From an uncultured Mariniphaga sp. (lineage in GTDB: Bacteria; Bacteroidota; Bacteroidia; Bacteroidales; Prolixibacteraceae): DNA of 52,528 bases. A program made the translations under genes and the position numbers. Numbering within the stretch: position 1 is the stretch's first letter; the number at the start of each line of letters is the position of its first letter. Shown here in pieces: positions 1,142 to 50,180 of the stretch. The notes below the pieces were generated by a model. That model was given only the letters and a program-made list of their open reading frames with translations, ran no database searches and had not been told where the DNA came from. The stretch is from assembly GCA_964355145.1 (NCBI GenBank), contig CAYHDA010000001.1:19632-72159 (forward strand), in the 5' to 3' direction.

Positions 1142-1236
1142 TTTCATCAGAAGATAATTTGTTTTTTAATTGCCTGATGGAACACCTGAGTTATCTTCAT
1201 TCATGTTTGCGAAGTGCAGAATCATGGGTATTTCAT
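1142..1236 (-). repeat. Copy 1 of the 4-copy intergenic cassette. Mini-ORF MKYP* (1236-1222) overlaps by ATGA the 19-codon sORF MILHFANMNEDNSGVPSGN* (1225-1166).
   Basis: The reverse complement of 1142-1236 aligns without gaps to 49036-49130, with 84/95 identical positions by hand count. It lies 5' of gldB in the sense orientation. Confidence 0.7.
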
Positions 1237-1943: not shown

Positions 1944-2020
1944 TAAAAGGTATTATAGAGTTTAACAGACTGTATTCTAAAAATTTAATTCATTTTGGCA
2001 ATTCATTTAGAGCTATTTTC

Positions 2021-3673
2021 ATGAAGATCGCACTTGCACAATTAAACTATCATATCGGGAATTTTGAAACAAACAGAATTCAGATCATCCAAAATATTGA
2101 AAGGGCAAAAGACCAGGGAGCCGGGCTTGTTGTCTTCTCGGAACTTGCCGTATGTGGTTATTATCCAAATGATCTGTTGGAACGACGTGAGTTTATTGAT
2201 CAGTGTATTGATTCTGTAAATAAAATTGCCAGCCATTGTCACGGAATTGCCGCCTTGGTGGGCGCTCCAAGTATCAATAATTCACCCAATGGGAAGATGT
2301 TGTTCAACTCGGCATATTTCTTAAAGAATGGCCGGATCGAAAGCATTCACAGTAAAACTTTGTTGCCAACTTACGATGTATTTGATGAATACCGTCATTT
2401 TGAGCCTAACCGGGAATTCAATTTAATTGAACTTAATGGTTTGAAGCTGGCGGTGACCATTTGCGAAGATCTTTGGTACAATCAGCCGGTATTCAGCACT
2501 TTTGGCAGAGAAAATCTTTATTCGGTGTGCCCTGTTCAGGAATATTGCAAACAAGATCCTGATCTGATTATCAACCTGTCAGCGTCGCCATTTTCGTACA
2601 ATCAGGCCAAACTCCGTAAAAATATCCTGCTTGATAATGCGAAGAAATATCAGGTGCCCATTATTTATGTCAATCAGGTTGGCGCTCAGACCGAGCTGAT
2701 TTTCGATGGAGGCTCCTTGTTTGTAAGTGGTTCCGGAGATGTAATCCGCGAGATGGCTTATTTTGCACCTGATTTTACCATTATAGATACCGAATGCCAG
2801 CACATTGCTTCGGTTATTCAGCCGGAAACAGAAACTATAGCTGACATTTATAATGCGCTGATACTCGGGATCAGTGATTATTTTCGGAAGACAGGGTTTA
2901 GAACCGCAACACTTGGTCTTTCCGGTGGTATCGATTCCGCGGTTACTTTAGTCCTTGCAGAAAAGGCGCTTGGAGCAGAAAATATTCATGTTTTGTTGAT
3001 GCCTTCGAAATTCTCATCCGGTCACTCCATAGAGGATGCGGTAAAACTTGCAGATAATCTGGGCGTTAAATATGATATTATTAAAATTCATTCGGTTGTT
3101 GATGCGTTTGATTTAACTCTGGCACCCGTTTTTGGAGGGCTGGCTCATGATCTTACTGAAGAGAATATTCAGGCCAGGGTTCGCGGATCATTATTAATGG
3201 CACTTTCGAATAAATTTGGTCATATTTTGTTGAATACATCGAATAAAAGCGAAGCTGCTGTCGGTTATGGAACTTTGTATGGCGACATGAATGGCGGGTT
3301 ATCCGTACTTGGCGACGTTTACAAGAAAGATGTATTCGAATTGGCGCGTCACATCAACCTTGAAAATGAAGTTATTCCATGGAATACGATTACCAAACCA
3401 CCCTCCGCCGAGTTACGTCCCGATCAGAAAGATTCGGATTCACTACCTGATTACGACGTTCTTGACAGTATTTTATTTGATTATATTGAACTGGCAAAGA
3501 GTCCTGCCGAGATTGTAGCCATGGGTTTTGATGAAGCTACAGTTCATCGGACAGTTCTTATGGTAAACAGAAATGAATACAAGCGTTTCCAGACTCCTCC
3601 CATCCTTCGGATTTCATCCAAGGCCTTCGGGTTTGGAAGAAAGATGCCATTGGTGGCGAAATATGTAGTTTGA
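2021..3673 (+). CDS. nadE: Glutamine-dependent NAD+ synthetase (N-terminal CN-hydrolase/glutaminase domain plus C-terminal NAD synthetase domain)
   Basis: 550 aa. The nitrilase-type N-terminus has MKIALAQLN, FSELAVCGY and LAVTICEDLW. The ATP-PPase P-loop is LGLSGGIDSAV, followed by the GYGTLYGDMNGG block. Confidence 0.92.
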   Translation: MKIALAQLNYHIGNFETNRIQIIQNIERAKDQGAGLVVFSELAVCGYYPNDLLERREFIDQCIDSVNKIASHCHGIAALVGAPSINNSPNGKMLFNSAYFLKNGRIESIHSKTLLPTYDVFDEYRHFEPNREFNLIELNGLKLAVTICEDLWYNQPVFSTFGRENLYSVCPVQEYCKQDPDLIINLSASPFSYNQAKLRKNILLDNAKKYQVPIIYVNQVGAQTELIFDGGSLFVSGSGDVIREMAYFAPDFTIIDTECQHIASVIQPETETIADIYNALILGISDYFRKTGFRTATLGLSGGIDSAVTLVLAEKALGAENIHVLLMPSKFSSGHSIEDAVKLADNLGVKYDIIKIHSVVDAFDLTLAPVFGGLAHDLTEENIQARVRGSLLMALSNKFGHILLNTSNKSEAAVGYGTLYGDMNGGLSVLGDVYKKDVFELARHINLENEVIPWNTITKPPSAELRPDQKDSDSLPDYDVLDSILFDYIELAKSPAEIVAMGFDEATVHRTVLMVNRNEYKRFQTPPILRISSKAFGFGRKMPLVAKYVV

Positions 3674-7456: not shown

Positions 7457-8395
7457 ATGGCAAACACAAATATGCGGTATGCTGCAGGGATTGATCTTGG
7501 AGGCACTTTTGTAAAACTGGCATTGGTATCTGAAGAGGGAAAAATTTCATTTCAGGATAAAATTGAGATCGGACCAAAAGCAACACGCGACGATATTCTG
7601 AAAATCTTGAGTCTTGCTATTCGAAAAATTATTGCCCATGCAAATCTTGAAGGTGTTAAACTGACCGGTATTGGAATCGGTTCACCGGGTATAATTTACG
7701 ATGGAGTTGTTATCGGAGGAGCTGATAATCTGAACGGGTGGGCGAATGTTCCGCTTGGTGCCATTTTTTCGAAAGAATTTGATCTTCCCGTTTTTGCCGA
7801 CAACGATGCCAATGTGATGGGGCTGGGCGAGGTCGAATTCGGAGCCGCGAAAGGATGTACGGATGCAATATTTCTTACAGTTGGTACCGGAATCGGAGGT
7901 GCCATCGTAATGAATGGCCAGCTCTATGGCGGGTATAAAAACCGGGGAACTGAAATGGGACATGTTACAATCGATCATAAAGGGATAGCCTGTAATTGTG
8001 GAGGCAGAGGCTGTCTTGAAGCTTATGCTTCAACCAATGCCCTGATCGGCCAGTACTCAAAGCAGACAGGCAAGAGCGGAAGTGAGATCAACGGATATTA
8101 CATAGTAGAGAAATTTTTGGAAGGTGAAACCGCGGCTGTTGAATGTATGCAGGAACATACTGATTATCTGGGACATGCTATTGCTGGATTTGTAAATACC
8201 TTTGCCCCTCAGAAGGTAATTATCGGGGGTGGAATCTCTGAGGCAGGTCAGTTTTATATTGATATGATTAAGGCATCGACATTTAACTATGCAATGCCCG
8301 ATTGTGCCGTTCACACTGATGTTATTGCAGCAACATTGGGAAATAATGCCGGTTGTATGGGTGCTGCATCATTGGTTTTCAGGAATAGTAATTAA
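7457..8395 (+). CDS. ROK family sugar kinase (glucokinase / N-acetylglucosamine- or glucosamine-kinase-like)
   Basis: 312 aa. ATP motif GIDLGGTFVK, ROK signature region GAAKGCTDAIFLTVGTGIGGAIV, and the zinc motif HVTIDHKGIACNCGGRGCLE. Confidence 0.9.
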   Translation: MANTNMRYAAGIDLGGTFVKLALVSEEGKISFQDKIEIGPKATRDDILKILSLAIRKIIAHANLEGVKLTGIGIGSPGIIYDGVVIGGADNLNGWANVPLGAIFSKEFDLPVFADNDANVMGLGEVEFGAAKGCTDAIFLTVGTGIGGAIVMNGQLYGGYKNRGTEMGHVTIDHKGIACNCGGRGCLEAYASTNALIGQYSKQTGKSGSEINGYYIVEKFLEGETAAVECMQEHTDYLGHAIAGFVNTFAPQKVIIGGGISEAGQFYIDMIKASTFNYAMPDCAVHTDVIAATLGNNAGCMGAASLVFRNSN

Positions 8396-8405
8396 ATTTT
8401 TTATT

Positions 8406-9662
8406 ATGAAAAAAAATTATTTTTTGGTTGTTTTGATCATGTTTGTGTTTTTTGTTATCTCATTTCTCACGAACATTTTGGGAGCACTAAATGATAAAGT
8501 ATCTGTTAGCTTTACGCTTAATGATACGATGGCCGGCCTGTTACCATTTGCCTTTTTTATAGCTTATGGAGTGATGTCTATCCCATTCGGATTTGGGGTC
8601 GAAAAATACGGAGAAAAGAGGATGATTATTATGGCCTTTCTGCTCGCTTTTGCAGGTGCTTTGGGTTTCGCACTTTTCCCAAAATTTAATGTGTTTGTTA
8701 TCTCTCTCTTTACCATAGGAGCCGGAATGGCGGCGTTACAGGTGGTTATTAATCCTCTTTTGAGGGTTTCAGGAGGTGAAGTTAATTACGCATTTAATTC
8801 TGTAATGGCTCAATTGATTTTTGGATTAGCTTCGTTTATCAGTCCTCAGATGTATACCTACTTTGTAACCAATATTGACGCTGGTAATGTGAATAAACCA
8901 TTTATTGGTTTGATGTCAGGTCTTGTACCGGCATCTATGTCGTGGGTTTCCGTTTATTGGATTTTTGCCCTGATTGCCATTTCTATGTCTGTAATCGTTT
9001 TCATGGTGAAATTTCCGGCAGTAGAGTTACAGGAAGATGAAAAAGTGGGATCAAAAGAGAGCTACTTTGAGTTATTTAAGAATAAATACGTGATACTGTA
9101 TTTCCTTGGAATTTTTGCTTATGTAGGCTCAGAGCAAGGAATTTCTTACTGGATGTCAAAGTTCTTAAAAAAGTATCATGATGTGAATCCCGATATGGCT
9201 GGCGCCGATGCCGTCTCCTATTTTTGGGGATTAATGACCATTGGAGGGATATTGGGACTTGTTTTAATGAAATTATATGACAGTAAACCAATCCTGAGAT
9301 GGTTTACTATTTTAGCAATGGGTTGTGTGGCACTTGGCTTGTCTGCTAGTGTTGAGGTCTCCTTATGGGCCTTCCCAATGTCGGGTTTCTTCCTTTCTGT
9401 TATGTTCCCGGTTATTGTTTCCTTGGGATTGAATTCAGTTCCCAAGCATCATGGTTCGTTCGCCGGAATATTAATGACCGGAATCGCAGGCGGTGCAATT
9501 GTACAGCTATTAATTGGAGCGATCAGCGACATTGTCTCACTTAAAGTGGGGATGCTATTTATCTTTGTAACTCTGGGCTATATTTTGAGCATTAGTTTCT
9601 GGGCCAAACCATTGGTGAATAACCAAACCTTCAGTCTGAAAAGTTTATTTAGCAAAAACTAA
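8406..9662 (+). CDS. MFS sugar:H+ symporter of the FucP/GluP/NagP family
   Basis: About 12 TM helices. The N-terminal block FFVISFLTNILGALND...LLPFAFFIAYGVMSIPFG is typical of glucose/galactose/fucose/GlcNAc MFS permeases. ATG 8406 was chosen because the ORF-track extension from 8289 overlaps the ROK 3' end. Confidence 0.8.
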   Translation: MKKNYFLVVLIMFVFFVISFLTNILGALNDKVSVSFTLNDTMAGLLPFAFFIAYGVMSIPFGFGVEKYGEKRMIIMAFLLAFAGALGFALFPKFNVFVISLFTIGAGMAALQVVINPLLRVSGGEVNYAFNSVMAQLIFGLASFISPQMYTYFVTNIDAGNVNKPFIGLMSGLVPASMSWVSVYWIFALIAISMSVIVFMVKFPAVELQEDEKVGSKESYFELFKNKYVILYFLGIFAYVGSEQGISYWMSKFLKKYHDVNPDMAGADAVSYFWGLMTIGGILGLVLMKLYDSKPILRWFTILAMGCVALGLSASVEVSLWAFPMSGFFLSVMFPVIVSLGLNSVPKHHGSFAGILMTGIAGGAIVQLLIGAISDIVSLKVGMLFIFVTLGYILSISFWAKPLVNNQTFSLKSLFSKN

Positions 9663-11002: not shown

Positions 11003-12010
11003 ATGAAGACAATAAAAATAGCACTTATTGGTGCCGGCTATATTTCCAACTATCATGCACGCGGACTTCAGGCTTTACCTGATGTCGAAATCGTGGTTGT
11101 AGTTGGACTTCCCATTGAAGCAGCCCGGACTTTTGCTGATAAATACAATATTAAAGAGGTAACAACTGATGTTTCAACCCTCTATGGCAGAGCCGATATT
11201 GATGCTGTCGTAATTGGAACTCCCAATAAGTTCCATGCGCCTTTTGCGATCGAATTCCTGAAAAACGGGAAAGATGTATTTCTGGAAAAACCTATGGCGA
11301 TGAATGCTCAGGAGGGACTGCTGATTAAAAAAGCAGCTGATGCAGGAAATCAGTTGGTTATGACCGGACATATGTGGCGGTTTGACAATGATGTGAATTT
11401 TGTGAAAGAAACAGTCGATTCAGGGCAACTGGGCAAGATCGTTAAGACAAAAGGATACGGTATCCACGAAAATTGGGGACCGGCAGGGTGGTTTTCGCAA
11501 AAAGAACTCGCCGGAGGAGGTGCCCTTGCGGATATGGGTGTTCATGCGATAGACACGGCCCGCTATATCCTTGGAGATCCCCTTCCGAAAAAGGTATATG
11601 CGAAAATCGGTACTCATTATGGAAATTACGATGTTGATGACTCGGGAATTATCATGATCTCATGGGATAACGGAGCAGAGTCAATTATCGAAAGTGGATG
11701 GTGGCAACCTCATATGGATGGTCCGGAAGCTGCGACAGGCATCTATGGTACGAAAGGTTATGCCAATGTATTTCCAACCTATCTTAAGTTTAAAGTAGGT
11801 AATATTCCCGGGAAATTTGAAGCCAAATTACCCGCCAAAACAGAACATTGTGATCAGTCGATGTACAGCCGTCAGATGGCGCATTATGTTGATTGTATAC
11901 GATCGCGTAATCAACCCGTTCCCGGATTAACCGAAGGACAGATTATTTTAGATATTGTCGATGCAGCCTATAAATCAGCTGAAACCGGTGAGGTTGTGAA
12001 TTTGGGTTGA
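11003..12010 (+). CDS. Gfo/Idh/MocA family NAD(P)-dependent oxidoreductase
   Basis: Rossmann start IKIALIGAGYISNYH, the EKPMA motif, and a C-terminal alpha/beta oligomerisation domain. The ATG abuts the DegT TAA stop (11000-11002), so the two genes look tightly co-translated. Confidence 0.85.
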   Translation: MKTIKIALIGAGYISNYHARGLQALPDVEIVVVVGLPIEAARTFADKYNIKEVTTDVSTLYGRADIDAVVIGTPNKFHAPFAIEFLKNGKDVFLEKPMAMNAQEGLLIKKAADAGNQLVMTGHMWRFDNDVNFVKETVDSGQLGKIVKTKGYGIHENWGPAGWFSQKELAGGGALADMGVHAIDTARYILGDPLPKKVYAKIGTHYGNYDVDDSGIIMISWDNGAESIIESGWWQPHMDGPEAATGIYGTKGYANVFPTYLKFKVGNIPGKFEAKLPAKTEHCDQSMYSRQMAHYVDCIRSRNQPVPGLTEGQIILDIVDAAYKSAETGEVVNLG

Positions 12011-12065
12011 TGGAACAGGCGTGATTCTACGCTTCAGAAATTCGAATGAAGATATTAACCGCTAA
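12010..12065 (+). repeat. Copy 4 (short variant) of the intergenic cassette. Mini-ORF MEQA* (12010-12024) overlaps by GTGA a 14-codon sORF (V/M)ILRFRNSNEDINR* (12021-12065).
   Basis: The cores TGATTCTaCgCTTC and CGAATGAAGATA are shared with copies 1-3. The mini-ORF ATG overlaps the Gfo/Idh/MocA stop (TGATG). The cassette ends 11 nt before the GH2 start at 12077. Confidence 0.55.
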
Positions 12066-12076
12066 ACTTAGTCTTT

Positions 12077-18609: not shown

Positions 18610-20970
18610 ATGACGAAAAGGATAACTTCGGTATATATTCAATTGCTCTTTTTTGCAATGCTGCTTGCAATGCAAGGATGCCAAAATAACATATCTCCCC
18701 AATTGGGTAAAGATAGGTTGGAGGATGTTATTGCGGCACTAACCACAGAAGAGAAAATAGCTCTTACTGTAGGAGTTGGAGATGGGAAAACTCCACCTCC
18801 CGGCATGCCCGCTTACGACCCAAAATCCGGAATAAGTATCGAAGATGTCACAACAATGAATCATTCGCCTCTCTTTACTCCGACAGTGGATGGTGTACTA
18901 TGGGGAATACCCCGCTTGGGAATAAAATCGACGCTGATGGGTGGTATTACAATTGCTTCCGTTAATCCAAAAGATTCCACTCATGAGGTTCGTTACACTG
19001 CTTTTCCTTCTGAAACGGCAATGGCTGCAACATGGAATACCCCGTTGATCGAAAAGGTTGGTGAAGCGATCGGAAATGAGGTGCTGGAATCCAATGTAGA
19101 CATCATGCTTGAGCCGGGTTTGAATATTCAGCGCAATCCAATGTGCGGCCGCAATTTTGAATATTTTTCAGAAGATCCGCTGCTGTCGGGGAAAATGGCT
19201 GCGGCATATGTCCGCGGGGTGCAGTCTCAGGGAGTAGGTACTGCAATCAAGCATTTTGCTGCCAATAATCAGGAAACGAACAGGCGAACTTATGATGCCA
19301 TCATCAGCCAGCGGGCTCTGCGCGAAATCTATCTCCGGGGATTTGAAATTGCGGTAAAGGAGAGTCATCCATGGTCAATAATGACATCTTATAACAGGCT
19401 GAACGGATTTTATACTGCTGAAAATCCTGAGTTGCTCAAATCAATTGTTCGCAAAGAGTGGGGTTTCGATGGCCTTTTCATGACTGATTGGGACGGATTG
19501 GGAAGCGCAGTGGCCAAGATCAGAGGCGGATGTAACTTACTGATGGGTGGCAGTAAAGCAGAATCGGATGAACTTAAAAAGGCTGTGAAAAACAGAGAAC
19601 TGGATGAAAAAGAATTGGACAAAAGTCTGGAATATGTTCTGAAATTTAAAATGAGAACGCCTCGTTTCAAAGGTTACCAGCCAGCTTTGAGCTATAACAG
19701 TATTTTACATACTGAACTTGCAAGAGCATCGGCAGGTGAGGCGATGGTGTTGCTTAAAAACAAGGGTGCAATCCTCCCATTCAACGCCAATATTAAAACG
19801 GTTGCATTGTTTGGTAAAGGCTCTTATTATTTTGTAGCAAGCGGAACAGGCAGCGGCGAGTCGAAACCAAAACATTCCGTTACGGTAAATGAAGGGGTCA
19901 AAAATGCAGGTTATCAGGTTGTAAAATCCCTCGATGAAACCTATTCGACGTTTGTGGATACAATACTTGTGAATAACAGCAGCGTAGGCGACTATTTCAA
20001 AAGACGGATAATCCCCTTCCATTCAGAATATAATATATCTAAAGCAACAATCGCCGATCAGGTAGCGGTATCTGACATTGCTGTGGTTACCATTGGTCGT
20101 ACAGGTGGAGAAGGACACGATAATGGTTATATCCCACTCGATCATGTTGAGCAGAATCTATTACGCGATGTATGCGAAATCTATCACGCTGCAGGGAAAA
20201 AAGTAGTCGTAGTGCTCAATGTCGGAGGGGCTTTCGAAATTGCCGGATGGCACGACCTCCCCGATGCAATTCTGCTGGCCTGGCAAACCGGTCAGCAAGG
20301 GGGAAATGCTGTTGCTGATGTGCTCAAAGGAGCGATCAATCCTTCCGGAAAACTGCCCGTATCATTCCCCTTGAAGGTTGACGATGTTCCCTCAGCACCC
20401 TACTTTGCCAGCGATTCCGTACTAAAAAAAACCGACGCTAATCCGGTATACTACAACGAAGGAATTTATGTGGGCTATCGTTATTTCGATTCATTTAATG
20501 TGCCAGTGGCGTTCGAATTTGGTTACGGACTTTCCTATACGACTTTTGAATACACTGCTTTAACATTAAGCGGCAAAACATTTTCGGATAATATAAAGGT
20601 GAGCGTTAGTATAAAAAATACCGGAAAGGTTGCGGGCAAAGAGGTGGTTCAGTTATATCTCTCGGCTCCCAATAACAAAATTGAGAAGCCTGCGCATGAA
20701 CTTAAAGGATTTGCAAAAACAAAACTTCTTCAGCCCGGTGAAGTTCAGCAACTCTCCTTTGAACTTGATGCCCGCGCCCTGGCCTCTTTCTGGAGTGGTA
20801 TCGGTGCCTGGATAGCCGACATGGGTGAATACCAGGTACAAATTGGCTCATCTTCTAAAGATATTCGCCTCAAGGCAATGTTTACTTTACCAAAAGAGCT
20901 GGTGACTGAGCGTGTTTTTGACGTGCTTTTTCCTTCTGCAGGGCTTAACGAATTGAGTATTAAAAGATAA
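18610..20970 (+). CDS. Glycoside hydrolase family 3 lipoprotein, tandem paralog of the 16237-18603 enzyme
   Basis: 786 aa with lipobox LAMQGC. It has the same block structure (RNPMCGRNFEYFSEDP, KHFAANNQETNRR, GLFMTDWDG) and long near-identical C-terminal stretches. Confidence 0.9.
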   Translation: MTKRITSVYIQLLFFAMLLAMQGCQNNISPQLGKDRLEDVIAALTTEEKIALTVGVGDGKTPPPGMPAYDPKSGISIEDVTTMNHSPLFTPTVDGVLWGIPRLGIKSTLMGGITIASVNPKDSTHEVRYTAFPSETAMAATWNTPLIEKVGEAIGNEVLESNVDIMLEPGLNIQRNPMCGRNFEYFSEDPLLSGKMAAAYVRGVQSQGVGTAIKHFAANNQETNRRTYDAIISQRALREIYLRGFEIAVKESHPWSIMTSYNRLNGFYTAENPELLKSIVRKEWGFDGLFMTDWDGLGSAVAKIRGGCNLLMGGSKAESDELKKAVKNRELDEKELDKSLEYVLKFKMRTPRFKGYQPALSYNSILHTELARASAGEAMVLLKNKGAILPFNANIKTVALFGKGSYYFVASGTGSGESKPKHSVTVNEGVKNAGYQVVKSLDETYSTFVDTILVNNSSVGDYFKRRIIPFHSEYNISKATIADQVAVSDIAVVTIGRTGGEGHDNGYIPLDHVEQNLLRDVCEIYHAAGKKVVVVLNVGGAFEIAGWHDLPDAILLAWQTGQQGGNAVADVLKGAINPSGKLPVSFPLKVDDVPSAPYFASDSVLKKTDANPVYYNEGIYVGYRYFDSFNVPVAFEFGYGLSYTTFEYTALTLSGKTFSDNIKVSVSIKNTGKVAGKEVVQLYLSAPNNKIEKPAHELKGFAKTKLLQPGEVQQLSFELDARALASFWSGIGAWIADMGEYQVQIGSSSKDIRLKAMFTLPKELVTERVFDVLFPSAGLNELSIKR

Positions 20971-22158: not shown

Positions 22159-23610
22159 ATGAATTTTTTAAGTAATACACAAAAGTACACGTTGGCGGGT
22201 ATCCTGATGGGAATTGTAATTCTGTCGTTTTTTTTCCGCTTCCCGATACATATTGAAAATGCGCTTACATTAGAAACAGAGCCTGATTTTGGTATTCATA
22301 TCCCGGTTTGGAAAATATTATTTGAGCCCGTCTTGGGTCTCTTATTGTTTTATAACCGTTCATTTCATTCCTTAACTGAGATGCGGTTGCTATTATTTTG
22401 GGTTTTGGCAGTTTTTATTGTTTATAGCCTGATAAAAACATTCATAATCAAAAACAAGCAAAAAAGATCGGGATTTGTACTTTTGCAATTAGTTAATATT
22501 CCAATAGTTATCGGTTTGTGGTTTGTCGTGTTTGTAATCATAGTTTTCATCCCCTTACCAAATAATACCATAATAAATAACTCCCAAAATTCTGTTTTGG
22601 TAACTACTCACTCCCATACGCAATTTAGCCACGACGGTCTTATTTCGCAACAGGGACTATGGAAATGGCATAAACGAAATGGTTTTGATGCATTTTTCAT
22701 AACAGATCATAATAACCATGATCAAACCTTCGATTTTGTGCAGGCACAGCGCGATCATAAATTCCCGCAAGAGCCCCTTGTAATGTGCGGCGAAGAATTT
22801 TCGGGAAGCAATCATTTAAGTCTGCTCGGTCTGAAGGTAAAATTTAGTATGAAAGGGATATCCGATTCAACGGCTATTCAGCTGGCACATGCCTCAAACG
22901 GAGCTGTAATCGTAAACCATTGGTTTGATGGGGAGCGTAACTCTCTTGAATATTATAAGAACCTGAACGTTGATGGCTTTGAAATTGAAAACAGCGCTAC
23001 AGATTTAACCTATGAAAGAGATGTTTATCAGAATATTAAAGATTTTTGCGGGCGTAATACTCTAATCATGAATGGTGGTCTGGATTTCCATGGATATGGC
23101 AATGCCTGCTCTTTATGGAATGCTTTTGAGATACCGGGATGGAAAAACCTAACCCCGGCTCTAAAAGAAGAGGCGATCCTTAATATTATAAAAACCCATG
23201 ACCAAAGCAAAATCAAAGTACTGCTGTACAAAGACAGACCCTATTATACCATGAAATATCTTTTGTTCAGTCCGGTATTTACCTTCATTAATTATTTCAG
23301 AACATTGAATAGCTTTCAGGTAATCTCCTGGATATTTTGGATATTGGTAATGATGTGGATTGTAAACAGAGGCGGCAATAAATACAGGGCAGAAAAACAA
23401 TCCCCTTCTCAGCGATTTGTGCCTGCTCTCGGTGTAATTGGGGCTTTATTTATGATTAGCTTAGGCGCTGTTTATTATGCACAAATTAAAGTGATCGAAG
23501 ATTATACAAAAATGTACCGCGAATACAGTGAGCTTTTATTATATGTTGGCATAGTATTTCTGGTTTATTCCGGTTCGGTGCTATTTTTCAGAAATTTCAA
23601 TCGAAAGTGA
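22159..23610 (+). CDS. Membrane-embedded PHP-domain metal-dependent phosphoesterase (CehA/McbA-like)
   Basis: 483 aa. About 4 N-terminal and 3 C-terminal TM helices flank a soluble domain with the PHP motifs TTHSHTQFSHDG and FFITDHNNHD. Confidence 0.6.
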   Translation: MNFLSNTQKYTLAGILMGIVILSFFFRFPIHIENALTLETEPDFGIHIPVWKILFEPVLGLLLFYNRSFHSLTEMRLLLFWVLAVFIVYSLIKTFIIKNKQKRSGFVLLQLVNIPIVIGLWFVVFVIIVFIPLPNNTIINNSQNSVLVTTHSHTQFSHDGLISQQGLWKWHKRNGFDAFFITDHNNHDQTFDFVQAQRDHKFPQEPLVMCGEEFSGSNHLSLLGLKVKFSMKGISDSTAIQLAHASNGAVIVNHWFDGERNSLEYYKNLNVDGFEIENSATDLTYERDVYQNIKDFCGRNTLIMNGGLDFHGYGNACSLWNAFEIPGWKNLTPALKEEAILNIIKTHDQSKIKVLLYKDRPYYTMKYLLFSPVFTFINYFRTLNSFQVISWIFWILVMMWIVNRGGNKYRAEKQSPSQRFVPALGVIGALFMISLGAVYYAQIKVIEDYTKMYREYSELLLYVGIVFLVYSGSVLFFRNFNRK

Positions 23611-39060: not shown

Positions 39061-39295
39061 AAGGTTGATTGTTAGAGAAATAGTCTGAAGACTGTTGATT
39101 TTAATATCTTTGTTTGATTCAAATGTATTCATTAGTTTTCAGATAAGTAAATAAATCACATCAAACTTACTGATCCGGGTTGAATTAGAGAGTCGAACCT
39201 GATTCAATATTTTCGGAGGAATAAATCTCAATTGATCAATATTTAATGTGCTTTATCCAATATTAAGGAAGTATTTGGGAATTGACGCACGTACC

Positions 39296-42300: not shown

Positions 42301-45300
42301 ATGAAAACCTTTTTTCAGTTTATTCTGATTTTGAGTATGGTAGTGGTGACTTCATGCACAAAACAAAAACAACCCGTTGATTATGTGGATCCTTTTCTGG
42401 GAACCTCTGGTAATCGCTGGATGCTTTTCCCCGGACCTTGCCTGCCCTTTGGGATGGTTAAGTTAAGTCCGGATAATACCGACGACTATGCCATGGATGC
42501 CGGTTACGAATATAAAAACAACAGTATTTGTGGCTTTGGTCATGTTCACTCGTGGGCGATGGGGAGTTTTTTAACCATGCCGGGAACGGGTAAAATTAAG
42601 ATCCAGCCTGGTAAAATTGATCATCCTGAATCAGGTTATCGTTCACGGATCAATCATAATACCGAAAAGGCTTCACCGGGTTACTATTCAGTTCTATTGG
42701 AGGATTACGGAATAAAAGCCGAATTAACAGCTACCACACGAGGTGGATTTCAGCGCTACACTTTTCCAAAAGGTGCAGATGGGCATATCCTCTTTGATTT
42801 ACAGGTGCCGGAAGAGTGGAAACCACTTCTCGTTGAGGCCTCGGTCAGAAAAGTCAGCGATCGGGAGATCGAAGGCTCTGTTCATCGCTCCGCCGGATTT
42901 AATGACTATGTTCTTCATTTTGTTGCCAGGTTCAACAGGCCATTCGAAACGATGGGAGGCTGGCAAGGAACTGATATTATTGATGATACAAAGGAGATTC
43001 GTGTTGTCAACGATCTGGATATAGGAGCATTCCTGAAATTTAAACCGGGTAACGACCAGGTTGTTTTAATGGAAACGGGTATATCTTATGTCAGTACCGA
43101 ACAGGCACGAATTAACCTGCAAACCGAACTGGATCCGTACAACTGGGATTTTGATGCAGCACATAAAGGGGCCAGGGATATATGGAACCAGCTTTTGGGA
43201 AAGATTAAAATTGAGGGCGGAACCGAAAGCGATAAAACGAAGTTTTACACCAACCTTTATCATTCATACAGCGCCCGGACCATCTACAGCGATGTGAACG
43301 GAAAATATACCGACATGTGCGAAAAGGTGCAGCAATTGGCTGATCCCGAATCTCCGGTTTATGGGTGTGATGCTTTCTGGATGACTTTCTGGAATCTGAA
43401 CCAGCTATGGGGCCTCGTTACCCCTGATGTTAATGAGAAGTGGGTGAAGTCGTTGCTTGAGATTTATGATAAGGGCGGATGGCTGTCTAATGGTCCTGGC
43501 GGAATTGAATACTCCGGCATCATGGTGGCCGAACATGAAATTCCACTTATCGTAGGTGCCTGGCAAAAAGGGATCCGCAATTTTGATGCGAACAAAGCTT
43601 ACAAAGCGATGAAAGAGATTCAGACAACACCCTCAAAACCTCACGAATGCGGGGGATATGCGGGAAATAGAAACATCGTCCCTTATATGGCAATGGGCTT
43701 CGTTCCTGCCGACGATGGTCCGGTATCAAATACACTCGAATATGCCTTCGATGACTGGTGTGTGGCACAAATGGCCAAATCATTGGGCAAGCTGGACGAT
43801 TATAACTATTTCATGCGAAGAGCCCAGAATTACCGAAACGTTTTTGATCCCTCTACAGGTTACATGCGCCCCAAATATGCCGGGGGTCCATGGATGGAGG
43901 AGTTCTCCCCAATCAAGAGTGCCGTTGGGAAAGAGGATAATTTTGGTACCAGGGATTATGTTGAGGCGAATGCATGGCAATATAGCTGGTTCGTTCCTCA
44001 CGATCTAAAAGGCCTAATTGAATTAATGGGAAAAGATGTATTCAACAACAGGCTGGAAGAGGGATTCAAAAAGTCGCTGCCTATTTTTACGAGCGCATTT
44101 GTGAACCATAGCAATCAGCCTAATATGCAGGCTGCCTGGCTTTTTAACTATTCTGGAAAACCTTGGCTGACACAGTACTGGGTACGGGAAATTATTGATA
44201 AATACTATGGCACCTCCCCTGTCGACGGCTATCCCGGCGATGAAGATGAAGGTCAAATGGGAGCCTGGTATGTGATGAGTGCGATGGGCCTTTTTGAGAT
44301 GGATGGAGGTGCCTCAACAGAACCCGCGTATGAATTATCGGGTCCTGTCTTTAATAAAATAACGATAAAGCTTGATCCGAAATATTATAAAGGCGGTGAA
44401 TTCGTGATTGAGGCAAAAAACAGTTCATCTGTAAACAGGTATATCCAATCAGCAACACTGAACGGAAAACCGTTAAATCAATTCTGGATCAGACATTCGG
44501 AGCTGGTAAAGGGCGGAAGGCTGGTTTTTGAAATGGGTTCTGAGCCCAATAAAGACTGGGCATCTAACAGTGAACATCCTCAAAAAAACGATATTGCAAC
44601 AATTGTCGCTACACCCTCCCTTATCGAAACAAACCGGATATTTTTAAAAGATTGTTCAGTGAAAATGTCATGTAATACACAAGGGGCTGAAATCTATTTT
44701 ACGCTCGATGGTTCACAACCCGATAAAAATTCCAGGTTATACAAAGAGCCCTTTATCGTCAATCAGACAACTACAATTAAAATGACTGCTTTTAAAGGAG
44801 ATGAAAAAAGTTTGCCTGCAGAAGCAGCGCTTACTAAAACCGGCCTGAGTAAACCGATTTCTCCCGGCGAGGTGGAGCAGGGTCTTCATTATAAGTATAT
44901 TCATGGTGATTTTCGGATGGTAAACGAATTTGCTGACATTAAACCGGTGAAAACCGGAATAATTCCGGTTTTCACCATTGAGCCCCGCGAAAGAGATGTG
45001 TTTTTTGCTTTTGATTATGAGGGCTTTATCCGTATACCGAAAGACGGACTTTACACCCTCTATCTGACCACCAATGATGGTGGAAGATTGATGATTGATG
45101 GCCGGCTGCTGATCAATAATGATGGATTGCATCCTCTGACTGAGATTTACAAACCTGTTGCTTTACAAGCGGGACTTCATCCTGTTTCTGTAAAATATTT
45201 CCAGGAAGGTGGGGGTAATGGCCTGAAAGTTTCATGGCAGGGTCCCGGAATTGGGAAAGAGGAAATTCCCGCTTCTGTATTGTTTCATAGGAAAAACCCA

Positions 45301-45303
45301 TGA
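42301..45303 (+). CDS. Glycoside hydrolase family 92 alpha-mannosidase lipoprotein with C-terminal Fn3-like plus PA14 module
   Basis: 1000 aa with lipobox VVTSC. GH92 blocks VDPFLGTSG, GFGHVHSW and GDEDEGQMGAWY. The PA14 tail has GLYTLYLTTNDGGRLMIDGRLLINNDGLHP. Confidence 0.9.
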   Translation: MKTFFQFILILSMVVVTSCTKQKQPVDYVDPFLGTSGNRWMLFPGPCLPFGMVKLSPDNTDDYAMDAGYEYKNNSICGFGHVHSWAMGSFLTMPGTGKIKIQPGKIDHPESGYRSRINHNTEKASPGYYSVLLEDYGIKAELTATTRGGFQRYTFPKGADGHILFDLQVPEEWKPLLVEASVRKVSDREIEGSVHRSAGFNDYVLHFVARFNRPFETMGGWQGTDIIDDTKEIRVVNDLDIGAFLKFKPGNDQVVLMETGISYVSTEQARINLQTELDPYNWDFDAAHKGARDIWNQLLGKIKIEGGTESDKTKFYTNLYHSYSARTIYSDVNGKYTDMCEKVQQLADPESPVYGCDAFWMTFWNLNQLWGLVTPDVNEKWVKSLLEIYDKGGWLSNGPGGIEYSGIMVAEHEIPLIVGAWQKGIRNFDANKAYKAMKEIQTTPSKPHECGGYAGNRNIVPYMAMGFVPADDGPVSNTLEYAFDDWCVAQMAKSLGKLDDYNYFMRRAQNYRNVFDPSTGYMRPKYAGGPWMEEFSPIKSAVGKEDNFGTRDYVEANAWQYSWFVPHDLKGLIELMGKDVFNNRLEEGFKKSLPIFTSAFVNHSNQPNMQAAWLFNYSGKPWLTQYWVREIIDKYYGTSPVDGYPGDEDEGQMGAWYVMSAMGLFEMDGGASTEPAYELSGPVFNKITIKLDPKYYKGGEFVIEAKNSSSVNRYIQSATLNGKPLNQFWIRHSELVKGGRLVFEMGSEPNKDWASNSEHPQKNDIATIVATPSLIETNRIFLKDCSVKMSCNTQGAEIYFTLDGSQPDKNSRLYKEPFIVNQTTTIKMTAFKGDEKSLPAEAALTKTGLSKPISPGEVEQGLHYKYIHGDFRMVNEFADIKPVKTGIIPVFTIEPRERDVFFAFDYEGFIRIPKDGLYTLYLTTNDGGRLMIDGRLLINNDGLHPLTEIYKPVALQAGLHPVSVKYFQEGGGNGLKVSWQGPGIGKEEIPASVLFHRKNP

Positions 45304-45372
45304 CTCTGCGCTTCGCTAATACGAATGAAAAAAACACAAGTGTTCAGTCAGACAATTAAAAAACAAATTTCT
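45289..45372 (+). repeat. Copy 3 of the intergenic cassette. The 19-codon sORF MTLRFANTNEKNTSVQSDN* (45300-45359) has its ATG overlapping the GH92 TGA stop (ATGA).
   Basis: Gap-free alignment to copy 1 over 83 nt, with 69/83 identical positions by hand count. The last GH92 codons (AGG AAA AAC CCA TGA) occupy the position of the mini-ORF ATG AAA TAC/CAC CCA TGA of copies 1 and 2. Confidence 0.65.
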
Positions 45373-45403
45373 CAATTAATCAATATCTGTTCAAGTGCAT
45401 ATT

Positions 45404-46600
45404 ATGAAAACACAACGACTTTCCATTGGCACACTTCTTATCCTGATCTTTTTTAGCACCTCAATTCAAATAAATGCCCAAACACCAAAAGTCCCGGGCA
45501 TTGTGGTGAATTATGTTCCTGCCTCGACGAAAACTTTCATTGGTTCTCCGAGTATCTGCATCCTTCCGAATGGCGATTATGTGGCATCGAATGATTTTTT
45601 CGGGCCAGCCTCAACAGAACATTCTGAGGCGTTAACTGCTGTTTATAAGTCCTCAAACCGAGGGAAGTCATGGAGGAAAATATCGGAAATACATGGGCAA
45701 TTCTGGTCAAATCTATTTGTGCATAACGAAGTCCTTTACATTATGGGAACCTGGAAGCATCATGGCAATTTGATCATCCGCCGTTCTGTGGATGGCGGAA
45801 TTACCTGGAGTGAGCCATCCGGCACAGCGAATGGGTTGTTGCGTGAGGGCGAATATCATACTGCTCCAATGCCTGTGGTGATTCACAAAGGGCGAATCTG
45901 GCGGGCCGTTGAAAATGCAAAATCAGTAAGTCAGAAATGGGGGTTACGATATAGCGCGATGGTTATTTCTGCACCATTAGAAGCCAACCTGCTAAATGCC
46001 GCAAGCTGGACAACCACCAATTTTTTAATGCATAATCCGGCATATCTTGATGGTAAATTCGGTGGATGGATTGAAGGAAATGCCGTCGTCACTCCTGAAG
46101 GGAAGCTGGTGGATTTTCTTCGGGTGGCAACTTCGGAAAAAGGACGTGAATTGGCTGCGGTCGTAAATATCAGTGAAGATGGATTGACTGCATCTTTTGA
46201 TCCGGCTAGCGGATTCCTCGATTTCGTAGGAGGTTCCAGAAAGTTTTCTATTCGATACGATCAGAAATCTAATCGTTACTGGACAATCAGCAATATGATT
46301 ACCCCGGAATTCGCCGGAATGGATGCCGGATCGGTCCGAAATACATTGGTGATCAAGAGTTCAGCAGACCTTAAAAGCTGGACTGTTCATCAAGTCCTCC
46401 TGCACCATCCCGATGTTTTAAAACATGGCTTTCAGTATATCGACTGGCAATTCGATGGTAAGGATATCATCTTCTTATCACGTACAGCCTGGGATGATGA
46501 ATTCGGAGGCGCAGATAACTTTCATAATGCCAATTACCTGACGTTCCATAGGATCAGTAAATTCAGAAAGCTTCAAAAAGAATACCTGTCAAATCGTTAA
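45404..46600 (+). CDS. Secreted BNR/Asp-box six-bladed beta-propeller protein (sialidase-superfamily-like glycosidase; specificity unknown)
   Basis: Signal peptide ending INAQTP. One canonical Asp-box (SVDGGITW) plus degenerate ones (SSNRGKSW, SADLKSW). I could not find a FRIP-type motif, so I do not call it a sialidase. Confidence 0.6.
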   Translation: MKTQRLSIGTLLILIFFSTSIQINAQTPKVPGIVVNYVPASTKTFIGSPSICILPNGDYVASNDFFGPASTEHSEALTAVYKSSNRGKSWRKISEIHGQFWSNLFVHNEVLYIMGTWKHHGNLIIRRSVDGGITWSEPSGTANGLLREGEYHTAPMPVVIHKGRIWRAVENAKSVSQKWGLRYSAMVISAPLEANLLNAASWTTTNFLMHNPAYLDGKFGGWIEGNAVVTPEGKLVDFLRVATSEKGRELAAVVNISEDGLTASFDPASGFLDFVGGSRKFSIRYDQKSNRYWTISNMITPEFAGMDAGSVRNTLVIKSSADLKSWTVHQVLLHHPDVLKHGFQYIDWQFDGKDIIFLSRTAWDDEFGGADNFHNANYLTFHRISKFRKLQKEYLSNR

Positions 46601-49035: not shown

Positions 49036-49130
49036 ATGAAACACCCATGATTGTACACTTCGCAAACACGAATGAAGATAACTCAGGCAGGCTATCAGGC
49101 AATTAATAAATAAATTATCTTCTGATGAAA
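49036..49130 (+). repeat. Copy 2 of the intergenic cassette. Mini-ORF MKHP* (49036-49050) overlaps by ATGA the 19-codon sORF MIVHFANTNEDNSGRLSGN* (49047-49106). The cassette tail CTGATGAAA supplies the start codon of the next gene.
   Basis: 84/95 identity to the reverse complement of 1142-1236, with no gaps. Start, frame and TAA stop of the sORF are conserved in three copies. Confidence 0.7.
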
Positions 49131-50180
49131 TTTTTTTCTCTTATTATAATACTTCCATTTTTTTTGCTTTCAACTGCACTTGGCAGAGAAACGGGTTTTA
49201 ATCCAAGCCAAGGGGAAGAAAATAACGGAATCAAGGATGCGAAAACCGCTAATCCTGAGCCTGATTATAGTAATCTTAAAAATTGGGCCGCCTCTCCATT
49301 CAAAGTCGATGCCAGTGACAGTATTCCCGATTTTTTGAAAGATGAGGTTAGGGATACGAGAGCCGATGTGTTCTTTATCCATCCGACATCCTTTTTCGGT
49401 GATGAAGAAAAAGCTGAATGGAATGCTGATGTCAATGATACGATAGTCAATAATATGACCGATTCAAGGTCGATATTATTTCAAACAACGGTTTTTAATG
49501 GCAGTTGCCGGGTTTTTGCTCCCCGATACCGACAGGGTAATATGAAGGCTTTTTATGTCTTTGGTACACCTAACGCCGTTCGCGCTTTCGATCTGGCATA
49601 CAGCGATGTACGTAAAGCTTTTCTGTATTTCCTTAGTCATTACAACAAAAAACGTCCAATTATAATTGCCTCACACAGCCAGGGTACGCTTCATGCCATT
49701 CGGTTATTACAGGAATTCTTTGACGGCACTCCACTGCAGAAACGATTGGTGTGTGCTTATATTGTTGGTTATCAGATTAAAAAAGACGCTTTTAAAAAAC
49801 TTCCGGTAGGTGAATCTGCAGACCAGACCGGATGTTTTGTGGGATGGCGCAGCTATTCAAAAGGCGAAATCCCCAAAGGTGCTGCGGCTGAAAAAGGAAA
49901 TTCAGTTTGCGTCAACCCGTTAACATGGACCACCTCTGAAATATGGGCCTCTCCGGATCTTCATCCGGGCATCATGAACGGCTTTAGAACCATCATCCCT
50001 CACTCTGCCGGTGCCGGCATTGAATCGGCATCTAAAATACTTTGGGTTGATGCGCCGGGTCTTAAAGATGATAAGGATCAAAAACCTAAGAACCTTCATA
50101 TTTACGATTACAATATTTTCTGGATGAATATCCGGCAAAATGTAAAACTACGTATAGACGCTTATTATGCAAAGCAATAA
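49125..50180 (+). CDS. DUF3089 family alpha/beta-hydrolase (lipase/esterase-like), secreted
   Basis: Signal peptide. The family-typical blocks are ADVFFIHPTSFFG and the nucleophile elbow ASHSQGTLH. Confidence 0.65.
   Translation: MKFFSLIIILPFFLLSTALGRETGFNPSQGEENNGIKDAKTANPEPDYSNLKNWAASPFKVDASDSIPDFLKDEVRDTRADVFFIHPTSFFGDEEKAEWNADVNDTIVNNMTDSRSILFQTTVFNGSCRVFAPRYRQGNMKAFYVFGTPNAVRAFDLAYSDVRKAFLYFLSHYNKKRPIIIASHSQGTLHAIRLLQEFFDGTPLQKRLVCAYIVGYQIKKDAFKKLPVGESADQTGCFVGWRSYSKGEIPKGAAAEKGNSVCVNPLTWTTSEIWASPDLHPGIMNGFRTIIPHSAGAGIESASKILWVDAPGLKDDKDQKPKNLHIYDYNIFWMNIRQNVKLRIDAYYAKQ

Follow-up and report, generated by a model that had tools for sequence, protein, structure and literature searches.

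The locus analysed here raises the question of why the stop codon of a glycosidase gene should double as the beginning of a short open reading frame (sORF), and whether the arrangement serves to regulate the gene that follows. It lies in a window of 52,528 nt (the whole stretch of DNA that was analysed, positions 19,632 to 72,159 of contig CAYHDA010000001.1, assembly GCA_964355145.1) from an uncultured Mariniphaga sp., which by the annotation of its genes is a glycan-utilisation cluster. The gene in question encodes a GH92 alpha-mannosidase and ends with the codons CAT AGG AAA AAC CCA TGA (..HRKNP*); the ATG at 45300-45302, which opens the sORF, overlaps its TGA at 45301-45303, and a BNR-like gene lies downstream. 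The first-pass annotation regarded this junction as the third copy of a cassette found at two other places in the window, where the sORF is preceded by a free-standing mini-ORF (ATGAAATACCCATGA at 1222-1236 on the minus strand in copy 1, c1, and ATGAAACACCCATGA at 49036-49050 in copy 2, c2). It offered two explanations: the mini-ORFs preserve the fossil of a gene 3' end copied along with the sORF, or the stop followed by a restart is itself a functional unit. Re-reading of the sequence confirmed the overlap and its coordinates, as well as the position of the GH92 tail in the mini-ORF slot, with 13 of 15 positions matching each mini-ORF. We conclude that positions 45289-45369 are very probably one old copy (copy 3, c3) of a non-coding, multi-copy interspersed repeat of approximately 89 bp from a freshwater Prolixibacteraceae lineage (Bacteroidota). 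The "translational chain" of GH92 and sORF arrives with this repeat and is not a dedicated regulatory device.

A dispersed repeat bounded by ATGAA

A degenerate pattern covering the left half of the unit (ATGANTNTNCNCTTCGCNAANANGAATGAA) was scanned against one genome per GTDB species and matched a single species representative, the metagenome-assembled genome (MAG) ELA493 of Mariniphaga sp. (Prolixibacteraceae). This MAG contains 21 matches on 18 contigs, and six of its contig ends fall inside the repeat. A scan of Joint Genome Institute (JGI) metagenomes added three further loci. The window's own population is present in several lake metagenomes, where the summed contig word depth over c1 and c2 amounts to 2000-3300, as against approximately 10-13 in the flanks; each run has 18 to 85 contigs on the c1 and c2 loci, many of them exiting the element into unrelated flanks. 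Over the diverged c3, the rise in depth is 5-10-fold. The family is a dispersed high-copy repeat, amounting roughly to dozens, or up to a few hundred, copy-equivalents, and the MAG matches and metagenome depth taken together therefore speak for a dispersed repeat and not for a device tied to GH92 genes. At locus L013 (6975-7246), three units are arranged head to tail with an exact period of 89 nt and a single ATGAA shared between units, an array that may be called minisatellite-like by analogy with the loci of mycobacterial interspersed repetitive units (MIRUs).

The consensus unit is ATGAAACACCCATGAATCTGCGCTTCGCAAACACGAATGAAGATAACTCAGGTGTTCCATCAGGCAATTAAAAAACAAATTATCTTCTG, followed by ATGAA once more. 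Full copies have the left edge ATGAA-ACACCC and the right edge CTG-ATGAA-N, and the flanks are unrelated directly before ATGAAACACCC and after CTGATGAA. On the right-hand side the sixth base differs among copies (T in L006, G in L024b), which limits the bounding direct repeat to ATGAA. It stands on both sides of every full copy, and the copies share one orientation relative to this asymmetric pentamer; the empty sites of distant relatives contain a single ATGAAA. Since the pentamer is always the same, a target duplication is indistinguishable from an element terminus lying beside a specific target. All three incoming reading frames are closed within the unit, by the TGA inside ATGAA, by a TGA at nt 13-15 and by a TAA at nt 69-71. 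The second of these stops is overlapped by the ATG of the sORF, which reads in the frame of the right-hand ATG. Inspection of the unit by eye for Bacteroidota promoter boxes (TAnnTTTG) gave a single near-match, on the antisense strand only.

The termini are not inverted repeats of one another (by eye, at most 8 of 14 positions match), and an inverted-repeat search of the full copies returned end-to-centre pairs only (ATGAAACACC/GGTGTTCCAT and TTCCATCAG/CTGATGAAA), never end-to-end ones. The central segment at nt 51-63 (GGTGTTCCATCAG; approximately 1174-1186 on the minus strand in c1) is a 12/13 reverse complement of CTG-ATGAA-ACACC, that is, of the right end joined to the left end via one ATGAA, as in a tandem array or a circle. 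A match of 12/13 was reached by 1 of 20,000 shuffles at the junction and by 3 of 1000 when any 13-mer of the circular unit was allowed. This central inverted copy could be a recombination site at the DNA level or an anti-start sequence at the RNA level. Folded as DNA, the two strands give -10 kcal/mol (z = -1.7 and -2.0), with stems that pair the end repeats and the centre.

The family has diverged into variants. A long subfamily, represented by L009 (5899-6013), L012 (6673-6787) and L024b (L024, 14247-14330), has a 21-nt insertion, with a CCCGATAAATCGGG hairpin in it, which divides the central inverted segment into its two half-sites; judged from its sequence at 49086-49100 (GGCAGGCTATCAGG), c2 looks like a deletion derivative of this subfamily. 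A diverged and shorter relative was found at L027 (9107-9188), where it sits on the ATGAAA that starts the GH92-783 orthologue; the GH92 of that genome is 81% identical. Global alignment gives this relative a score of 29.2, compared with 10.9 +/- 3.3 for shuffles (0/2000 reach 29.2). The relative and the family have in common the ATGAAA ends, GCTTCGC and the right approximately 40 nt, not the mini-ORF layout; the relative has CCATGG in place of CCATGA and its first ORF comprises 16 codons.

Copies at gene ends and gene starts

With approximately 84% identity to the family consensus (82-86% to the MAG copies by blastn), c3 has an exact left edge and a decayed right end, in which no CTG-ATGAA is recognisable. 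To which part of the junction the last GH92 codons belong can be read from the 120 best GH92 homologues. After ..VLFH, or a close variant of it, nearly all of these have a further 0-8 variable residues, and FH-x-K, in some cases with a few residues more, is the end of the seven closest proteins without the element (77-81% identical). At the DNA level, the 3' ends in five element-free relatives are CAT CAT AAA TAA, CAT CCG AAA TAA, CAT CAG AAA AAG TAA, CAT CAT AAG ATT ATC CAG TTT TAA (L023) and CAT AAA AAG CAG TGA. Therefore, CAT AGG AAA is native, and AAC CCA TGA comes from the element. The GH92 gene accordingly borrows the TGA of the element and reads two codons into it; the base-for-base alignment of its tail to the mini-ORFs follows from its stopping at the same element TGA. 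The mini-ORF ATG AAA CAC CCA TGA, in turn, is composed of the host start codon (a duplicated target or an element terminus mimicking it) and the element's own CACCCATGA. The only other end of the RKNP/RKHP type among the 120 homologues belongs to P0001, a GH92 protein with 96% identity that ends with FHRKHP, corresponding to the consensus CAC CCA, and is encoded on a syntenic contig of 136 kb whose gaps, 101 nt and 156 nt, are those of the window too; none of the others ends with NP or HP. The two additional residues are unlikely to matter, since the PA14 domain finishes at residue 991 of the 1000 residues of GH92 (Pfam).

Nucleotide homology between the window and L023 breaks at 45288 and picks up again at 45398. 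The empty site in L023 consists of the GH92 TAA, 25 nt of spacer and then ATGAAAACA, and the 34 nt preceding the BNR ATG in the window resemble this native spacer, including CATATT-ATGAAAACA; c3 therefore sits at the end of GH92 and not at the start of the BNR-like gene. The order GH92 to BNR-like is kept without the sORF in L023, L028 and L029 (spacers of 25, 98 and 117 nt). These three loci, in which the GH92 orthologues end otherwise, the sORF is absent and the gene order is unchanged, show the pattern that the first-pass annotation had named as a refutation, and so count against stop and restart as the functional unit. Likewise, in L023 and L020 the DUF3089 gene, which follows c2 in the window, has one ATGAAA as its start, and the element is absent. 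The exact DUF3089 protein of the window is not on record. In L020, L021 and L022 (P0002 genomes), the DUF3089 gene was called from approximately 12235 as a 2002-residue product running into two GH92 modules, which is either a real fusion or an artefact of gene calling.

Gene starts are the most frequent location of the copies. The right-hand ATGAA opens a real gene, defined as an ORF of at least 130 aa or one running off the contig (range 130-779 aa), at 14 of the 20 independent loci with a readable right end, and many of these genes begin with signal peptides. The other six copies are not at gene starts; at c1 and L011, a co-oriented gene starts approximately 25-35 nt 3' of the copy. In the window, 84 ATGAAA sites were counted, including 8 gene starts (8 of 29 genes start with ATGAAA), 72 intragenic sites and 4 intergenic sites, all 4 of which are in element copies. 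The dominance of gene starts would be explained by the ATGAA target together with selection against an intragenic insertion of 89 nt, which is not a multiple of 3. The genes 3' of the copies are functionally unrelated, encoding gldB, BNR-like, DUF3089, P-loop (guanylate-kinase-like) and GH92-like glycosidase products, among others. In four MAG copies (L004 at 3244-3337, L008, L016 and L017), TAA has become TTA, so that the sORF loses its stop and continues in frame into the host gene; for L004, the 779-aa GH92-like protein can thereby be read in frame as 805 aa (+26 residues).

These placements are consistent with a family spread by a trans-acting recombinase or transposase that would recognise ATGAA, gene starts being almost the sole ATGAA(A) sites likely to tolerate an insertion. 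Copies on a Met-Lys start leave the host gene with an intact start at the 3' edge of the element, and the ATGAAA at the 5' edge now opens a four-codon mini-ORF closed by the element TGA. It is plausible, by analogy with MIRUs, that the left end is shaped so that an insertion at a start codon stays translationally harmless. The stop-restart layout would at most have this effect and would not make the element a regulator of the BNR-like gene. Translation of the sORF could also open a stem in which nt 55-63 pair with the region of the host AUG.

Mobility and the alternatives

Several observations weigh against the interpretation of c3 as a copy of a mobile repeat. Between close strains, no filled site could be paired with an empty one; the empty sites all come from relatives at only approximately 76% nucleotide identity, and no empty-site joints for c1, c2 or c3 were detected in Logan contigs from four lake metagenomes; for these reasons ongoing mobility and exact duplication are inferred. 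A lone joint of the "goes back 81" type was rejected as a cross-match of a c3 contig onto c1. Neither a transposase nor an autonomous parent element was identified by genome and metagenome scans aimed at the element pattern only, and the annotated genes of the window include no transposase. Given that the termini are not mutual inverted repeats, the family is no classical MITE (miniature inverted-repeat transposable element). The right junction of c3 is not reconstructable: several indel scenarios fit, none of them compelling, and AGGAA may itself have been the (near-)target or may have been ATGAA at the time of insertion. Finally, the conserved right 40 nt and the internal inverted junction could reflect a translational function at the level of the host in place of mobility. 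A more specific proposal, in which the family is a start-codon-homing, non-autonomous element of Bacteroidota that combines site-specific recombination at an ATGAA core, through the junction folded onto the central 12/13 copy, with a built-in translational pass-through, is in our opinion doubtful. Pass-through would then consist of stops in all frames, a restart at ATGA and an anti-start stem that translating the sORF opens, so that a landing on a start codon does no harm; the folded site would arise as a single-strand or circular intermediate, by analogy with attC and CTX attP, and the left end of c3 would capture the ribosome terminating on GH92.

Among the rival explanations, a selected translational relay deserves the most attention, although we regard it as unlikely. 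It is the strong form of the second earlier explanation and would involve a restart at the overlapping ATG by ribosomes that finish the mini-ORF (or GH92) and melting, by translation of the sORF, of a stem that masks the host AUG, thereby coupling downstream to upstream translation. The ATGA overlap is indeed present in all main-family copies, conservation is highest in the right 40 nt, in the L027 relative as well, and the sORF spans the CAU-containing nt 55-63, which pair with CUGAUGAAA at nt 87-95 (9 nt, 89% complementary) in minimum free energy (MFE) folds; MIRUs are thought to couple likewise (PMC12548453). However, relatives without the element have the same gene order and starts, the L027 relative carries CCATGG, and 24 nt (45 nt in c3) separate the sORF stop from the host ATG 3' of it, with no downstream overlap. 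One or the other stem is gone in the diverged L025, c3 and c2, where the host ORFs are intact, and the two-hairpin fold shows no covariation (0.057 versus 0.060 in shuffles), a test of low power because the copies are 95% alike. Moreover, the copies include the six off gene starts and the threefold tandem array. A search for RNA evidence turned up no metatranscriptome containing the locus. In view of the GH92-BNR order without sORF in L023, L028 and L029 and of the CCATGG in L027, the earlier suggestion that stop and restart form the functional unit is superfluous for explaining the sequence. Still less probable, to the point of being very unlikely, is control of the downstream genes by a cis-regulatory RNA such as a riboswitch or a leader-peptide attenuator. 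The position directly 5' of genes in the same orientation, the modest fold of the consensus RNA (-19 kcal/mol, z = -2.3) and the Asn-rich 19-residue peptide would suit it, but the RNA folds of the window copies are no better than those of shuffles (z between -0.3 and +0.6), the missing covariation counts here as well, and the downstream genes form no coherent functional set. Over the entire window, no Rfam 15 family matched at gathering scores, and at E up to 10 only two chance snoRNA matches appeared near the locus. The approximately 100-fold depth, the positions at contig ends and the tandem array of the family are equally at odds with such an RNA.

A similarly low probability is assigned to the sORF being a functional 19-residue micro-protein present in many gene copies. 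An open ORF of the same length occurs in c1, c2, c3, L024, L025 and most MAG copies, but its unique changes comprise 23 nonsynonymous and 10 synonymous ones, distributed as 7/15/11 over codon positions 1/2/3 with position 2 the most changed. By this measure the sORF is free of coding constraint and its substitutions are neutral. The stop is lost in the four TTA copies, the variants with the 21-nt insertion have an altered peptide, and the L027 relative contains a different ORF; a protein search with a 45-aa construct (the read-through sORF peptide plus the host N-terminus of L004) yielded no candidate. The least probable of all, and hardly credible, is the derivation of the free-standing mini-ORFs from a gene 3' end duplicated with the sORF. 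Its attraction is the 13/15 match of the last 15 nt of GH92 to each mini-ORF, yet ends of the RKNP/RKHP type are confined to the window protein and P0001 among the 120 homologues, and more than 20 unrelated loci carry copies with no GH92 nearby. The ATGAAA also recurs at the right edge, where it is mostly a host gene start. The direction proposed by the first-pass annotation is thus reversed: ATGAAA bounds every copy and is usually a host Met-Lys start, and CACCCATGA belongs to the element.

Known repeat systems and neighbouring features

The interspersed repeat finds its closest analogue in the MIRUs, as an analogy and not as membership. Published accounts describe MIRUs as intergenic repeats of 40-100 bp in tens of copies, sometimes in tandem (PMC12548453, PMC3184786, after Supply 1997), with short direct repeats (tetranucleotides) and small ORFs overlapping the stop or start codons of their neighbours, and as inserting at start codons such that the host gene stays translated or coupled (PMC12548453, PMC3184786). 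Measured against the MIRUs, the present family is similar in its 89-nt unit, its more than 20 dispersed loci, the tandem arrangement at L013, its co-orientation with flanking genes and its location on the start codon of a co-oriented gene at 14 of 20 loci. Empty sites exist in related species for both, and for neither family is a mobilising enzyme known. The two differ in the direct repeat, which is the 5-nt ATGAA here and a tetranucleotide in MIRUs, and in the overlap, which here is restricted to the upstream side (ATGA with the mini-ORF or GH92; TGATG in copy 4, c4), the sORF ending 24 nt before the host ATG. In addition, the 89-nt unit is not a multiple of 3, and the phylum is Bacteroidota; across phyla, homology in sequence is not to be expected.

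Other small bacterial repeats (Correia/NEMIS, ERIC, RUP, BOX and RPE) include some that extend the 3' or 5' ends of neighbouring genes, and some Neisseria REP2 and Borrelia repeats lie just 5' of genes, with an ATG (PMC3184786). The present family resembles these repeats and MITEs in being small, non-coding, multi-copy and intergenic and in breaking short-read assemblies, and c3 extends GH92. It differs from classical MITEs in that its termini are not inverted repeats and its target is a specific asymmetric pentamer and not TA or a random duplication. PATEs derived from IS200/IS605, as well as REPIN/BIME, are mobilised by Y1 HUH transposases; IS200/IS605 elements produce no target duplication, and their right-end cleavage motif is normally unlike the target. 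With these the family shares the lack of terminal inverted repeats, the fixed orientation to a 4-5-nt target by the left end and an internal hairpin potential, and the arrays of alternating motifs in REPIN/BIME resemble its direct-inverted-direct succession of an ATGAA-containing 13-mer. PATEs have subterminal hairpins at both ends that TnpA recognises; the hairpins here are weak (z = -1.7 to -2.3). A purely structural analogy may be drawn to attC and to the attP of CTX phage, in that the internal inverted core and the joined ends could together form a folded duplex site, with the core at both ends, a fixed orientation and tandem arrays. In contrast to these systems, the copies have no adjacent integrase, are dispersed at gene starts and not collected in one array, and are far smaller than known cassettes.

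In the literature searched, no description of such a repeat in Prolixibacteraceae or Bacteroidota was found, and the family appears to be undescribed; its kind is ordinary, a small interspersed repeat with a gene reading into it. For annotation, this means treating the mini-ORF, the sORF and the ..KNP tail of GH92 as parts of a repeat element; labels such as regulatory cassette or micro-protein gene are not appropriate. In the TTA variants, gene callers may add a false N-terminal extension of 26 residues, and the repeat fragments short-read assemblies of this lake lineage. The family would represent a Bacteroidota counterpart of MIRUs, a small repeat that colonises start codons in such a way that the gene survives. 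The phylum matters in this respect: initiation in Bacteroidota is largely not led by Shine-Dalgarno sequences, and without reliance on such pairing the family therefore amounts to many natural start-codon insertion experiments on what an initiation region needs. Together with the pentamer target, the absence of inverted repeats at the termini and the inverted junction inside the unit suggest a mobilising enzyme yet to be found.

Features of the c3 locus and of the other copies in the window are collected in the following table.

Table 1. Coordinates of the repeat copies and adjoining features in the window
Feature	Position	Strand	Basis or remark
GH92 alpha-mannosidase with C-terminal PA14 domain; two residues added by the element	42301..45303	+	Pfam matches; comparison of 120 homologues
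Copy 3 (c3) of the approximately 89-nt interspersed repeat	45289..45369	+	nhmmer E = 7e-16, model positions 3-81
AGGAAA, native Arg-Lys codons of GH92, in the slot of the ATGAA(A) direct repeat	45289..45294	+	element-free orthologues
AAC CCA TGA, left end of the element (consensus CAC CCA TGA); final two residues and stop of GH92	45295..45303	+	alignment of 21 copies
sORF of 19 codons, peptide MTLRFANTNEKNTSVQSDN*	45300..45359	+	part of the element; present in all full copies
Mostly native GH92-BNR spacer; tail motif CTCAATTAATCAATAT and GCATATT preceding the BNR ATG	45370..45403	+	compared with the L023 spacer TAAATTAAATCGTATAAATCGTCATATT-ATGAAAACA
BNR-like gene 3' of c3, beginning ATGAAAACA; encodes a signal peptide	45404..46600	+	Pfam; orthologues directly 3' of GH92 in L023, L028 and L029
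Copy 1 (c1), full unit, approximately 95% identical to MAG copies; sORF 1166-1225	1148..1236	-	5' leader of gldB (103-1116); nhmmer E = 5e-28
Right-hand ATGAAA of c1; no gene start (15-codon ORF)	1142..1147	-	gldB begins approximately 25 nt further on
Copy 2 (c2), full 89-nt unit; mini-ORF 49036-49050, sORF 49047-49106	49036..49124	+	profile match; nhmmer E = 5e-22
Right-hand ATGAA of c2, start codon of the DUF3089 gene (49125-50180)	49125..49129	+	351-aa ORF MKFFSLIIILPFF...
Copy 4 (c4), degenerate, internally deleted	12010..12076	+	nhmmer E = 2e-4, model positions 1-45 (12010-12054)

The nhmmer profile was made from copies outside the window. Ungapped, c2 and c3 are 74% identical. In a situation related to that of c3, the ATGGAA of c4 and the TGA of the oxidoreductase gene 5' of it (11003-12010) have one base in common, forming TGATGG, and the GH2 gene 3' of this copy begins with ATGAGA at 12077. 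The 12-mer AAANACCCATGA is the left edge of an 82-94-nt repeat; by itself it is not significant (4 matches versus 2.2 expected). An exact AAAAACCCATGA is located at 23190-23201, within the gene at 22159-23610; considered as a repeat copy, it was dismissed as a chance match only.

The tail of the c3 locus had been noted to recur upstream of another GH92 gene. The 16-mer CTCAATTRATCAATAT does occur both at 45371-45386 and at 39227-39242 (2 matches versus 0.17 expected, with up to 2 mismatches). As a part of the element it was rejected: neither it nor the segment 45370-45403 is found in any other repeat copy, and the occurrence at 45371 is native spacer. The block at 39227-39290 (TTGATCAATATTTAATGTGCTTTATCCAA..GGAAGTATTTG), 5' of the first GH92, is almost identical to L023 827-890, the two genomes being otherwise approximately 75% identical, and holds the palindrome ATTGATCAAT. 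This block probably serves the mannosidase cluster as a promoter or operator. Elsewhere in the window, a ROK kinase ORF (7457-8395) and an MFS transporter ORF (8289-9662) overlap by 107 nt (8289-8395), and the true start of the transporter is probably located downstream of 8289.

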